From sequence record OQ689734.1: DNA of 64,000 nt, one strand, 5' to 3'. How positions within the stretch are numbered: the stretch's first letter is position 1; each line of letters begins with the position of its first letter. This document shows, piece after piece, positions 6,185 through 9,971 of the stretch. The notes beneath the pieces are model-generated. The model saw only the letters and a program-made list of their open reading frames with translations. It did no database searches and was not told where the DNA came from. Source of the DNA: Escherichia phage 4E8. Made by a program: the position numbers and the translations under genes.

Positions 6185-6421
6185 ATGAATACAAGACAGC
6201 AATTCAATAAAGAGCACGCCGCCGCTTTGGCGGCTCTCAATCACAACGGCATTCTTGACGCAGCATTAGAGGCATTAAAAGAAACCCTCATGAGAGATAT
6301 TGTATTAACCGAGGCTCATGAGAATAAGAAACGCGAAGAGTGTTATCAAAAGTATAAAATGGTTGGTAGCTTAAAAGAGGTCATAAAAGCTGCTATCAAT
6401 AATGCAGGAGATATTTCCTAA
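6185..6421 (+). CDS. hypothetical small protein
   Basis: 78 aa ORF between portal and scaffold, SD aagga. Confidence 0.4.
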   Translation: MNTRQQFNKEHAAALAALNHNGILDAALEALKETLMRDIVLTEAHENKKREECYQKYKMVGSLKEVIKAAINNAGDIS

Positions 6422-7503
6422 TGGCAAATGATTATATTGACCCGAACGATTTTAAATCTTTCCTCCAACTAGACGACTTAAAAGGCTCCTTCAAAGAAGA
6501 GCTTAGTCAATTAGAATCAGAACGTGAACCAGAAGTGAACATTGATGATGAATTCCCAGAACAGTCTGAGACTTTTGATCTTGATGCTTCCGACCTTCTC
6601 GGTGATGACGACACGTTAGCGTTCGAAGATGAAGATGGTTGGGAAGATCGTGAAGAGGAAGGCGAAGAAGAAGAGGAAGAGTCTGAGTTCTCTGATGAAG
6701 ACGATGAAGAAGATGATTCCGGTGAAGCAGATCACGATGAAGCTGCTAACAGTGATGAAGATGGCGAAGAAGGTGAAGTCTTTGACGTAGATTATGAAAC
6801 TGTTATCACCCTTCCTGATGGTCGTGAGATGACTATTGAAGAGTTGTCTAATGGCTATTTGACTGGTGCAGAAATGTCCGAACGTGAGACTACTTTGCAG
6901 CGTCATGTTGAAGCTTTTGAAGAACGTGTTGCTGGCTTGGGGGATGTATTAGAACTAGCTGCCCTAGAAGCAGACCGAGTAATTGAAGATTACAACGGTT
7001 TTGATTGGGACAAACTCGCACAAGAAGATCCTCAAGCTTATGTAGAAAATAAACGTTTCTTAGAAAAATATACAGCTCGTCGCCAACAGCTTGAACAAGC
7101 TCAGCTTAAAATCAAGCAAGAAGCACTAGCAAAAGAACAACAGCTCTTCCAAGCTAAATGTACTGAGTGTGTAAGCGTACTTAAACGTGAGATTCCTAAT
7201 TGGGATGACAACTTGTATCAGAACCTGATGCAGTATGCAATCGACTTAGGTGCTACAGAAGAAGAAGTGCTGAAAGAGAACCGTCCGTCAATCTTCCTAG
7301 CTCTACACAAAGCATACCAGTTTGATAAAGGTAAGCAGCAGGTGATGGCTAAGATTAAACGTCCCGGCTCTCCACGCAAGGTTGTGAAGTCCGATGCTTC
7401 TAAGTCTCGTTCTTCCAATACGCCAGACAACGCTAAGGTTGCCAAGGCATTCTCAGAGGGTCGTATTCGTCACGAAGACGCATTTAAGTATCTCGTAGAT
7501 TAA
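6421..7503 (+). CDS. putative head scaffolding protein
   Basis: 360 aa, extremely acidic D/E-rich N-terminal half and coiled-coil C-terminal half; sits between portal and major capsid. Confidence 0.5.
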   Translation: MANDYIDPNDFKSFLQLDDLKGSFKEELSQLESEREPEVNIDDEFPEQSETFDLDASDLLGDDDTLAFEDEDGWEDREEEGEEEEEESEFSDEDDEEDDSGEADHDEAANSDEDGEEGEVFDVDYETVITLPDGREMTIEELSNGYLTGAEMSERETTLQRHVEAFEERVAGLGDVLELAALEADRVIEDYNGFDWDKLAQEDPQAYVENKRFLEKYTARRQQLEQAQLKIKQEALAKEQQLFQAKCTECVSVLKREIPNWDDNLYQNLMQYAIDLGATEEEVLKENRPSIFLALHKAYQFDKGKQQVMAKIKRPGSPRKVVKSDASKSRSSNTPDNAKVAKAFSEGRIRHEDAFKYLVD

Positions 7504-7543
7504 TCGACAAATTTATTTTTAATAGTATAGGAGCTAATATAAC

Positions 7544-8599
7544 ATGGCAAATCCAACTTTATTTGTATCTTACGACCAGAATGGTAAAAAACTTTCTTTT
7601 GCTAACTGGATTTCTGTCCTGTCTCCGCAAGACACTCCGTTTGTGTCTATGACTGGTAAAGAGTCTATCAATCAGACTATTTTCAGCTGGCAAACCGATG
7701 CTCTGGCGAGCGTAGATGCTAACAACGCCCACGTCGAAGGCTCTCGTGCTGAAGACGGCGAAATGAAACCTACTGTAATCAAGTCCAACGTTACTCAGAT
7801 CCTGCGTAAAGTTGTTCGTGTTTCTGATACTGCTAACACCACCGCTAACTACGGTCGTGGTCGTGAACTGATGTATCAGCTGGAGAAGAAAGGTAAAGAG
7901 ATTAAACGTGACCTCGAGAAAATCCTGCTGTCCGGTCAGGCTCGTACCGATATTCTGGCAGACCAGTATCTGACCAACTCTGCAACTGATCCTGCTGTTG
8001 TAGGTAAGAATGATACATCAGCTGCTCGTAAGACTGGTGCTTTCCAGTTCCTGTGTGCACACAATGGTGTTGCTGGTGGTGTTGTTAAGAAAGAAGATGG
8101 TCCTGCTGACCCGGATACTGGTGCAGTAACTGTTAAAGTTGCACAGAATGCTTCTAACCCGACTACTAACATCGGTTTTGATGAAGCTGATATCTTTGAT
8201 ATGACTCTGCAATTGTATACCGCTGGTTCTGAAGCAGACATCATCATGATTAACCCTGCTCACGCTAGTATCTTTGCTAAGCTTCAGGAAAACTCTGTTG
8301 GTTCTCGTCAGCGTATCTTTGAGAACACCAAACAGTTCATCTATGAAGTTAACAGCATCACTGACCCGCTGGGCCAGAGCTATAAAATCATCGTTAACCG
8401 TTGGATGCCTGCTGATGCAGTTTACTTCTTCCGCAGCTCTGACTGGACTCAGATGGTTCTTCGTGCTCCGAAACGTACTGAACTGGCTAAAGATGGTTCT
8501 TACGAGAAGTGGATGATTGAAATGGAAGTTGGTCTGCGTCACCGCAACCCGTATGCTTCCGGCGTTCTGTTCACTGCTGCGGGAAAGGCGGCGGCGTAA
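7544..8599 (+). CDS. major capsid protein (zero-frame product)
   Basis: 351 aa after scaffold; highly biased, highly-expressed-like codon usage (ctg, cgt, ggt); strong terminator downstream; carries a frameshift site near its 3' end. Confidence 0.6.
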   Translation: MANPTLFVSYDQNGKKLSFANWISVLSPQDTPFVSMTGKESINQTIFSWQTDALASVDANNAHVEGSRAEDGEMKPTVIKSNVTQILRKVVRVSDTANTTANYGRGRELMYQLEKKGKEIKRDLEKILLSGQARTDILADQYLTNSATDPAVVGKNDTSAARKTGAFQFLCAHNGVAGGVVKKEDGPADPDTGAVTVKVAQNASNPTTNIGFDEADIFDMTLQLYTAGSEADIIMINPAHASIFAKLQENSVGSRQRIFENTKQFIYEVNSITDPLGQSYKIIVNRWMPADAVYFFRSSDWTQMVLRAPKRTELAKDGSYEKWMIEMEVGLRHRNPYASGVLFTAAGKAAA

Positions 8600-9123
8600 C
8601 AGTAGACAGTGTGACTGTTAGCCCTGCGTCTTTAGCAAGCCTAGAGACAGGGGCTACTCGGCAGTTCACTGCAAGCGCGGAGAAAAGTGATGGTTCTACC
8701 GAAACAACTGGCTTTACTTGGTCAGTGACAGGAGGTGGTTCTATCACTCAGTCGGGTTTGTATACTGCTCCGAGTGCGTCTCAATCCACTGATGTATCCA
8801 TTACTGCAACTTTAGAAGGTGTTTCTGGTACAGCAACCATTTCTGAAATTGTTGCTCCTGCTCCTACTATTGTAGCTAAGGGTCCAATTACGGGTAAAAC
8901 TGGTGGTTCTTCCACTAACTTCACTACCATGTTTACTGTAACTAATTCTACTGCTGCGGATTACACGTTTGTTGTAACCCCTACAGAAGCTGGTACAGTA
9001 AGCGCCGCTGGTGCGTTAACCTTAGATGCTGCTGCAAGTGGCGAAGTTACTGTTCAAGCAAGTTTGACAGCTGACCCATCCATCAATGCAACATGCACTT
9101 TTACTGGTGTAACACCTGCTTAA
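7544..9123 (+). CDS. predicted frameshift-extended capsid protein with C-terminal Big_2-type Ig-like domain(s), about 526 aa
   Basis: -1 frame after the slip reads GGGVTVDSVTVSPASLASLETGATRQFTAS..., a Big_2-like motif beginning exactly at the junction; the stand-alone ORF 8611..9123 starts with GTG and has no SD. Confidence 0.45.
8581..8587 (+). other. candidate -1 programmed ribosomal frameshift slippery heptamer G_GGA_AAG
   Basis: X_XXY_YYZ heptamer in the capsid zero frame 11 nt before the capsid stop; the -1 frame is open from 8521 to 9123. Confidence 0.5.
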
Positions 9124-9130
9124 AACTAGA

Positions 9131-9156
9131 CCCTGCCTTCGGGCGGGGTTTTTTCG
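9131..9156 (+). terminator. rho-independent terminator (ccctgcc TTCG ggcgggg + TTTTTT)
   Basis: GC stem with UUCG tetraloop and a 6-T run after the capsid/Ig ORF. Confidence 0.6.
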
Positions 9157-9224
9157 TTTTAAGACCTATACAAGCTAGTGTGTAATGTATATTCTTTGTC
9201 TACATACAACTAGGAGGACAATCT

Positions 9225-9971
9225 ATGGCGATGCCAGACGTTCAAAACCCAATTAATACCTACGGATGGCTTAAGAAGGCTGTGTCCCTCTGGGCTGACC
9301 GTGATGACCCTGAATTTGTTAATCAAATTCCAAACTTTATTAACTTTGCAGAAAAGGAAATCTACCGTAATTTACGTATTCCTCCTCTGGAAAAAGAAGT
9401 CTATTTAGATATTAAAGATGGTGTGGCTTTTATTCCACCAGATTACTTAGAAGCTCAGTGGATGATGAGATCTAAAGATGGTTTAATCTTCCGTGTAACC
9501 TCTCTCGAAGAAGTGGATTGGCTCAAACGTAATAACTCAGTCAACCCAACCAATTGGAATCAGGGAGAAGTTGTCTTTGCTCGTTTAGGTAGCCGGTTTA
9601 TTTTCTACCCTGCAATTGAAGCAGATACTCCAGTTTACCCTGATGATGGTAGCCCTGAGATTCCAGCAGAGAACTCAGTTATTCTCAGCTATTATGCTGA
9701 CCCACCGGAATTCTGGGAAGATTCAGATACAAGCGCTATTCTTACTATTGCCCCAGAACTTCTTCTGTACTTCACCCTACGTCATGCTTGTCTCTTTGTT
9801 CAAGATGATAATGGTGTTCAGAAATGGTCAGCATTAGGAAAAGCTATCCTTGATGAAATAGTAGAGCAGAATAAGAAACAAGAGTACTCAGGTTCACCTT
9901 TAGTTATTCCTAACACGATTAGCCGTCTACATAGCTCTCGTGAAGTATATGGGATTCGTCGTTTTAGATAA
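9225..9971 (+). CDS. virion structural protein (possibly head-tail connector or adaptor; positional)
   Basis: 248 aa, strong SD aggagg, between capsid and tail-fibre genes. Confidence 0.4.
   Translation: MAMPDVQNPINTYGWLKKAVSLWADRDDPEFVNQIPNFINFAEKEIYRNLRIPPLEKEVYLDIKDGVAFIPPDYLEAQWMMRSKDGLIFRVTSLEEVDWLKRNNSVNPTNWNQGEVVFARLGSRFIFYPAIEADTPVYPDDGSPEIPAENSVILSYYADPPEFWEDSDTSAILTIAPELLLYFTLRHACLFVQDDNGVQKWSALGKAILDEIVEQNKKQEYSGSPLVIPNTISRLHSSREVYGIRRFR

Follow-up and report, generated by a model that had tools for sequence, protein, structure and literature searches.

The locus lies on the + strand of the window, that is, of the whole 64-kb stretch of DNA analysed here, in which the gene order (portal, small ORF, scaffold, capsid, Ig ORF, adaptor, fibre) is that of phiEco32, SU10, and MLP3. 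The capsid gene, the -1 frame that runs on beyond it, and the elements found in and after them are as follows:

7544..8599, + strand: major capsid protein gene, zero frame, 351 aa; Pfam PF17236 (SU10_MCP), E = 2.6e-79
8574..8599, + strand: predicted small hairpin CUGCUGC/GCGGCGG whose loop holds the heptamer; role uncertain
8581..8587, + strand: slippery heptamer G_GGA_AAG in X_XXY_YYZ register (capsid frame gcG GGA AAG)
8587..9123, + strand: -1 frame extension, 178 codons and TAA; proposed C-terminal part of a 526-aa long capsid isoform
8602..8841, + strand: Ig-like domain 1 (Pfam Big_2), extension residues ~6-85; AlphaFold2 strands E6-E85, pLDDT >95
8611..8613, + strand: GTG, ORF-caller start of a 170-aa ORF; probably only an internal Val codon
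8866..9114, + strand: Ig-like domain 2, extension residues ~94-176, from the AlphaFold2 model
9128..9161, + strand: strong intrinsic terminator, after the extension

The capsid gene presented a Shine-Dalgarno sequence (AGGAG) at 7529-7533, and its product, an HK97-fold protein of the SU10_MCP family, matched the solved SU10 major head protein (7z45) with E = 1.6e-222. The 3′ end of the gene reads ...ACT GCT GCG GGA AAG GCG GCG GCG TAA, with the TAA at 8597-8599; read from these capsid codons, GGGAAAG stands in the zero frame in a slip-competent register, as an earlier note on this DNA had claimed, but the gap between heptamer and stop codon is 9 nt (three codons, GCG GCG GCG) and not the eleven nucleotides given there. 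The window contains seven copies of GGGAAAG (7.3 expected from shuffles), a count that is at chance level and is no evidence by itself; it is the context of the copy at 8581 that exceeds chance. Only this one among the seven copies lies in register within a long ORF (348 upstream codons), and no other canonical heptamer on either strand of the window combines a position in the last 90 nt of an open frame of at least 150 codons with a subsequent -1 extension of 100 or more codons.

The -1 frame presented a stop at 8518-8520 and then stayed open, as the earlier note had also read it, from 8521 until the TAA at 9121-9123; just past the slip point it encodes GGGVTVDSVTVSPASLASLETGATRQFTAS.... A fusion of 348 capsid residues with the 178 residues of the extension would have 526 aa and a computed mass of 55.6 kDa (about 526 aa and roughly 55 kDa had been proposed), compared to 38.6 kDa for the capsid protein alone, and its tail is predicted to consist of a GGG linker and two Ig-like domains. 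For the first of these domains, a good Big_2 match had been claimed; Pfam Big_2 (PF02368) indeed matched extension residues 6-83 (E = 1.5e-5, 25.3 bits), a marginal pass of the 22.8-bit gathering cut-off, and Big_2 scores in relatives were far higher (e.g., 119 bits in L017). The AlphaFold2 model of the 178-aa tail, built from a 22-sequence alignment, presented two beta-sandwich domains (mean pLDDT 96.7), and the best PDB match of the whole model was the tandem Big_2 structure of Leptospira LigA (8gyr, E = 6e-11), indicating that the second domain, previously described as beta-rich, is Ig-like too. The model contained no domain beyond these two and no separate capsid-binding domain. Homologues of the extension were solely Ig-domain proteins from related phages, and the extension protein is 95% identical to its counterparts in relatives; none of the homologues in a 5.8-billion-protein set was an in-frame fusion with SU10_MCP, and an in-frame capsid-Ig fusion was found by way of the second capsid paralogue of phage 7-11 (see below).

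The capsid module belongs to the phiEco32/SU10-like (Kuravirus/Suseptimavirus) coliphages of the Gordonclarkvirinae. Pfam SU10_MCP and SU10_adaptor matches are both present in the window, and the 1580-nt region comprising capsid gene and extension presented identities of 99.6% to MLP3, 98.8% to SU7, 93.8% to SU10, and 93.6% to phiEco32; identity was 98.5-98.9% to the group formed by IME267, SU7, PAS59, and 101114UKE3 (the last classed as Suseptimavirus, Gordonclarkvirinae) and about 93.6-93.9% to SU10, phiEco32, and many other Kuravirus phages. GGGAAAG was invariant in all nine Kuravirus-like sequences examined, and the codons that follow it differed among them (GCG/GTG, and GGC GGC to GGG AGC); one sequence (L014) presented a 3-nt insertion after the heptamer that keeps the relation between the two frames. 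Variable columns in the extension numbered 55, 49, and 113 at the first, second, and third codon positions of the -1 frame, respectively (170 columns each), a third-position bias that indicates coding selection in this frame. The -1 frame was intact in eight of the nine sequences. The SU10 record contains the heptamer and a 1-nt insertion ~25 nt downstream, which puts a stop in the -1 frame after 11 codons; the window does not contain this insertion.

No terminator or promoter was found between the capsid gene and the extension, suggesting that both are transcribed on one mRNA; in a Pseudomonas relative without the extension (tf), an annotated terminator directly follows the capsid stop codon. 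Frameshift sites commonly include a stimulatory element, which may be a sequence upstream that resembles a Shine-Dalgarno or an RNA structure (hairpin or pseudoknot) located 5-9 nt downstream, but such an element is not obligatory for GGGAAAG. Folding of 8588-8680 (z = -1.3 versus shuffles) and of 8560-8640 (z = 0.05) gave no convincing stimulatory RNA. A four-sequence consensus fold with a few compensatory changes placed a hairpin downstream, in coding sequence; we rejected this hairpin as evidence for a stimulator because it starts ~22 nt past the heptamer, versus the usual 5-9 nt, and lies in coding sequence. The small hairpin at 8574..8599 cannot serve as a downstream barrier, since the heptamer sits in its loop; L013 has lost one of its base pairs, and its energy is no better than that of shuffled sequences (z = 0.05). 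A small CUGCUGC/GCGGCGG hairpin has been mentioned for SU10 (PMC4281155). An Rfam scan of 8300-9300 presented no match save two sub-threshold sRNA matches at the terminator.

We conclude that a programmed -1 ribosomal frameshift at the G_GGA_AAG of the capsid gene very probably makes a 526-aa, 55.6-kDa capsid-Ig isoform that would be a minor subunit of the head. The earlier note had likewise favoured a frameshifted capsid fusion over a stand-alone Ig gene, a preference supported by the invariant heptamer (9/9), by a GTG that is neither conserved nor preceded by a Shine-Dalgarno sequence, and by the published relatives.

If the Ig ORF were instead an independent gene, its 170-aa protein would be initiated at GTG 8611 and would decorate the capsid non-covalently or have some other role. 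This is how the locus appears in most annotation: ORF callers list the 170-aa ORF, most GenBank records annotate it separately, the counterparts in relatives bear the label ‘Ig domain containing protein’, and SU10 gp10 has been discussed as a possible separate minor capsid protein (PMC9509320). The initiation signals argue otherwise. GTG 8611 is the earliest possible start codon in the -1 frame and, in line with the claim that it has no Shine-Dalgarno sequence, its anti-Shine-Dalgarno pairing (-1.7 kcal/mol) matches that of random positions (median -1.5 kcal/mol); each of the 19 long ORFs on the + strand pairs more strongly (19/19; median -9.3 kcal/mol), with values of -6.5 kcal/mol for the capsid gene and -10.2 kcal/mol for the adaptor gene. 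GTG 8611 is also not a conserved start, because the alignment of the nine Kuravirus-like sequences presented GTA at this position in L013 and L015 and ATA in L014. No start is conserved across relatives; in the protein database, the called starts of their Ig ORFs fall in at least three places (MTVSPASL, MASL/MTSL, and, most often, MSDGST), many of them inside Ig domain 1, and the MSDGST start, ~33 residues into this domain, would drop its first three strands. In more distant relatives, the -1 frame contains either no start codon at all in its first 50 codons (Privateer-like phages) or starts with weak or no Shine-Dalgarno pairing.

The protein itself is also difficult to reconcile with an independent gene. 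The Ig fold begins upstream of GTG 8611, as the earlier note had supposed when it stated that a GTG-initiated product would lack the first Ig strand; strand A of the AlphaFold2 model spans extension residues 6-12 and GTG 8611 is residue 9, so such a product would lose the first three of the seven strand A residues and not the whole strand. The tryptic peptide GGGVTVDSVTVSPASLASLETGATR, which starts eight codons upstream of GTG 8611, could come from the frameshift product only. A stand-alone decoration protein of the Hoc type has its own start and its own capsid-binding domain; the Ig ORF presented neither, the only capsid-binding domain being the capsid protein itself. Initiation signals, conservation, scattered starts, coding signal, transcription, distant relatives, and the contiguous fusion of phage 7-11, when combined, make a stand-alone 170-aa product very unlikely, and we consider an independent gene a highly improbable explanation.

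Even less probable is that both the heptamer and the open -1 frame have become inactive, a relic from which little or no long isoform is made here, as is apparently the case for sequenced SU10. The SU10 record combines the heptamer with a closed -1 frame, and SU10 virions show no extension: cryo-EM revealed no extra capsid density (PMC9509320), and SDS-PAGE showed no long-isoform band, which was attributed to the -1-frame stop in SU10 (PMC9965538). The absence of the extension from SU10 virions indicates that it is dispensable. Both the missing density and the missing band are probably explained by the 1-nt insertion that closes the SU10 -1 frame; flexible Ig tails on only a few percent of the subunits would, in addition, average out in cryo-EM reconstructions. 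Mass spectrometry of SU10, in turn, was reported to show 38.5- and 55.4-kDa capsid forms (PMC4281155), a result at odds with the -1-frame stop in the SU10 record, and the published protein evidence for a long isoform is thus not clean. A relic is difficult to reconcile with a 178-codon frame that is intact here, with 95% protein identity to relatives and variation mainly at third positions, and with the intact versions in eight of the nine Kuravirus-like sequences. A frame change by RNA polymerase slippage on the mRNA, and not by the ribosome, is known to yield -1 products from certain phage and IS genes (reviewed in PMC5009743) but has a negligible probability here, since it requires long homopolymer runs (roughly seven or more), the runs at this site are only three G and three A, and the X_XXY_YYZ register exactly fits ribosomal tandem slippage.

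According to the preferred frameshift model, most ribosomes would stop at the TAA at 8597-8599 and produce the 351-aa, 38.6-kDa capsid protein, while a minority would slip back one base on G_GGA_AAG with tRNA-Gly occupying the P site and tRNA-Lys the A site; in this simultaneous tandem slip, the Gly tRNA would move from GGA to GGG and the Lys tRNA from AAG to AAA, and the slipped ribosomes would read 178 further codons in the -1 frame. Tandem tRNA slippage is the established model for X_XXY_YYZ sites. An efficiency of a few percent may be expected, because the same heptamer is used in lambda G/GT, for which an efficiency of 3.5% is quoted in PMC9965538. With 715 capsid subunits as reported for the SU10 head (PMC9509320), efficiencies between 3.5% (lambda-like) and 10% (T7-like) would correspond to ~25-70 Ig-tailed subunits of 715 per head. 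The long isoform would keep the whole capsid fold and could thus be built into the prolate head as one of its minor components, with the Ig domains displayed on the head exterior, where they would probably mediate a weak and dispensable attachment to carbohydrates, whether of cell surfaces or of the environment. Ig-like domains of phage structural proteins have been described as surface-displayed and often added via 3′ frameshifting, with weak adhesion proposed as their role (Fraser et al. 2006, as cited in PMC9965538); the adhesive surface-display function suggested here draws, by analogy, on this general phage Ig-domain literature.

The lambda G/GT site is an identical G_GGA_AAG near the end of the upstream ORF, with no required stimulatory structure known; lambda G and GT are, however, tail chaperone genes whose product is not a virion component, so the likeness is mechanistic and does not reflect homology. 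The 10A/10B capsid proteins of T7 and T3 belong to an unrelated capsid sequence family and have a different slippery sequence. They nonetheless resemble the present case in that a -1 shift near the end of the capsid gene gives a longer minor subunit, which makes up ~10% of the head (PMC9965538, PMC7881722); in T3, the extension adds an Ig-like domain (PMC9965538). T4 Hoc also presents Ig-like domains on the virion surface, but these belong to a distinct polypeptide that has a capsid-binding domain of its own, whereas here the capsid protein would be the anchor.

Within the Gordonclarkvirinae, the frameshift feature is already known, and the present result is a correct rediscovery that adds no new biology. 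In 2014, the major head gene of SU10 was reported to contain a ‘potential ribosomal slippage (GGGAAAG)’, as in phiEco32 (PMC4281155), and the same GGGAAAG capsid frameshift has been described in YF01 and ‘other group phages’ (PMC9965538); SU7, MLP3, and IME267 are named among the group members compared in the literature. In Proteus phage Privateer, the same GGGAAAG signal was reported together with a minor capsid protein in virions, supported by two bands and mass spectrometry (PMC7881722). The earlier note referred to Ig-like capsid decoration by frameshifting in other phages but was unaware of the publications on this feature. The genome papers of SU7 and PAS59, which are among the closest relatives, did not mention a frameshift. 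The window shares gene order, GGGAAAG position, and a product of ~55 kDa with phiEco32 (gp11/gp12), SU10 (gp9/gp10), and YF01 (gp8), at 93.6-99.6% nucleotide identity. It differs from the SU10 record in its open -1 frame, from YF01 in having two Ig domains and a 526-aa product instead of many Ig domains and 892 aa (PMC9965538), and from MLP3 in lacking an HNH endonuclease gene after the Ig ORF.

The chief value of the result lies in annotation. The two ORFs are kept apart in all five of the Kuravirus-like GenBank records that were inspected, and the extension is left unannotated in one of the five; the claim that annotation misses the fusion was thus correct, and the long capsid isoform is missing from protein databases as a consequence. 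In the SU10 structural study, the Ig ORF was considered as perhaps encoding a protein of its own. Unlike sequenced SU10, the phage studied here has an intact extension, which predicts a head with a minority of Ig-tagged subunits; such heads could differ in adsorption or persistence, and the capsid C-terminus would be a natural display site.

Whether this site is one case of a family-wide and evolutionarily plastic device in prolate SU10_MCP podophages, in which the same minor product, a capsid protein with Ig domains, is obtained via at least three routes, is in our view evenly balanced. In distant relatives, the Ig domains encoded in the -1 frame begin 1-5 residues past the capsid stop. The first route is the canonical G_GGA_AAG of Kuravirus-like and Privateer-like phages. 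Proteus phage P59 and two Privateer-like IMG/VR contigs presented an SU10_MCP capsid protein with 58% identity, a 3′ GGGAAAG, and a 169-aa -1 extension with I-set-like and Big_2 domains; Privateer resembles the window in the same three features (SU10_MCP capsid with 58% identity, 3′ GGGAAAG, 169-aa Ig-like extension) and differs from it in that no spacer codons stand between the heptamer and the stop codon and in that the first Ig domain is I-set/Ig_3-like and not Big_2. In the Privateer-like contigs and P59 alike, GGGAAAG adjoins the TAA. In one Privateer-like sequence (L023), the first G of the heptamer is the very point at which the -1 frame opens, which confines the shift to those seven bases; the first 50 codons of this frame contain no ATG, GTG, or TTG. 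Another canonical heptamer on this route, A_AAA_AAG, was found in one metagenomic contig, with a -1 tail of only 41 aa and no Pfam match.

The second route involves non-canonical sites (G_GTA_AAG or A_GTA_AAG), which were identified in Aeromonas Lahexavirus, three metagenomic contigs, and Serratia phage KSP100; only the Lys tRNA can re-pair at these sites. Our literature search retrieved no description of non-canonical sites for Lahexavirus, and these sites, together with capsid gene duplication, are possibly the only new element, one that lies outside the main finding. The third route is a duplication of the capsid gene with in-frame fusion of the second copy to Ig domains. Salmonella phage 7-11 contains two tandem capsid genes, the second being an uninterrupted ORF of 585 aa in which SU10_MCP covers residues 10-307 and Big_2 matches the C-terminal part (best stretch 503-580), and Cronobacter phage GAP52 resembles 7-11 in this arrangement; the ORFs of these two phages show that the family includes capsid-Ig fusions encoded in one piece.

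Several relatives carry Ig-like domains in the -1 frame downstream of the capsid gene without a canonical heptamer (X_XXY_YYZ) at the capsid 3′ end:

L006 4410-4690, capsid 3′ end and -1 frame Ig-like region, Aeromonas phage LAh_9
L017-L020 3912-4430, capsid 3′ end and -1 frame Ig-like region
L009 3283-3693, capsid 3′ end and -1 frame Ig-like region, Serratia phage KSP100

In all of these, the capsid gene ends in G_GTA_AAG or A_GTA_AAG, with the TAA stop 3 nt further on, and the Ig-like domains in the -1 frame begin within 1-5 residues of the capsid stop (Big_2 match of 119 bits in L017; I-set/Ig_3 domain matches in L020 and KSP100). Most candidate start codons near the beginning of the -1 frame have weak or no Shine-Dalgarno pairing, and the KSP100 -1 frame opens just 13 nt upstream of the capsid stop. 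Together, these sequence features suggest that a single tRNA-Lys may slip on A_AAG at these sites. A literature search covering Lahexavirus found no description of G_GTA_AAG or A_GTA_AAG as capsid slip sites; the -1 frame ORF is annotated as "tail protein" in LAh_9 and "major tail subunit" in KSP100.

Two further relatives contain tandem capsid paralogues:

L005 2482-5258, tandem capsid paralogues, Salmonella phage 7-11
L008 3492-5629, tandem capsid paralogues, Cronobacter phage GAP52

The first paralogue is short, and a terminator, which the 7-11 record annotates, comes after it. The second continues in frame into Ig-like domains, giving proteins of 585 aa in 7-11 and 366 aa in GAP52; neither capsid locus contains a slippery heptamer. 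Judged from this gene arrangement, capsid duplication would be another route to the same pair of short and long capsid proteins.

An IMG/VR contig of 124,877 bp presented a different extension:

L022 3921-4052, capsid 3′ end and -1 extension

Its capsid gene closes with A_AAA_AAG, the dnaX-type heptamer, 3 nt ahead of TAA; the -1 extension comprises only 41 aa, is rich in proline and lysine, and has no Pfam match.

Alignment with Kuravirus sequences identified a difference in the SU10 record (KM044272):

L002 2560-2600, 1-nt insertion, SU10

None of the other Kuravirus sequences compared has this insertion, which closes the -1 frame 11 codons past the heptamer. The closed frame is at odds with the 55.4-kDa form reported for SU10 by mass spectrometry (PMC4281155), but is consistent with cryo-EM lacking extra density (PMC9509320) and with the reported absence of a long-isoform band (PMC9965538); the insertion could reflect an error in sequencing or a difference between phage stocks.

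Other features were found around the site in the window:

8609-8671, predicted hairpin in the Ig domain 1 coding sequence (RNA folding, consensus of four sequences)
6421-7503, protein directly upstream of the capsid gene

The hairpin is present in four Kuravirus-like sequences, with both sides changed at three pairs; its folding was not significant against shuffles, and a classical stimulator would lie closer to the slip site. In MLP3, the closest relative, an HNH homing endonuclease gene (L003 3182-3694) separates the Ig ORF from the adaptor gene. At this position the window has just a 101-nt intergenic region with the terminator (9124-9224). In phiEco32 and SU10, the upstream protein carries the annotation "scaffolding protein". 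It has no Pfam match; its N-terminal third is very acidic, with long Glu/Asp runs (EEEGEEEEEESEFSDEDDEEDD).
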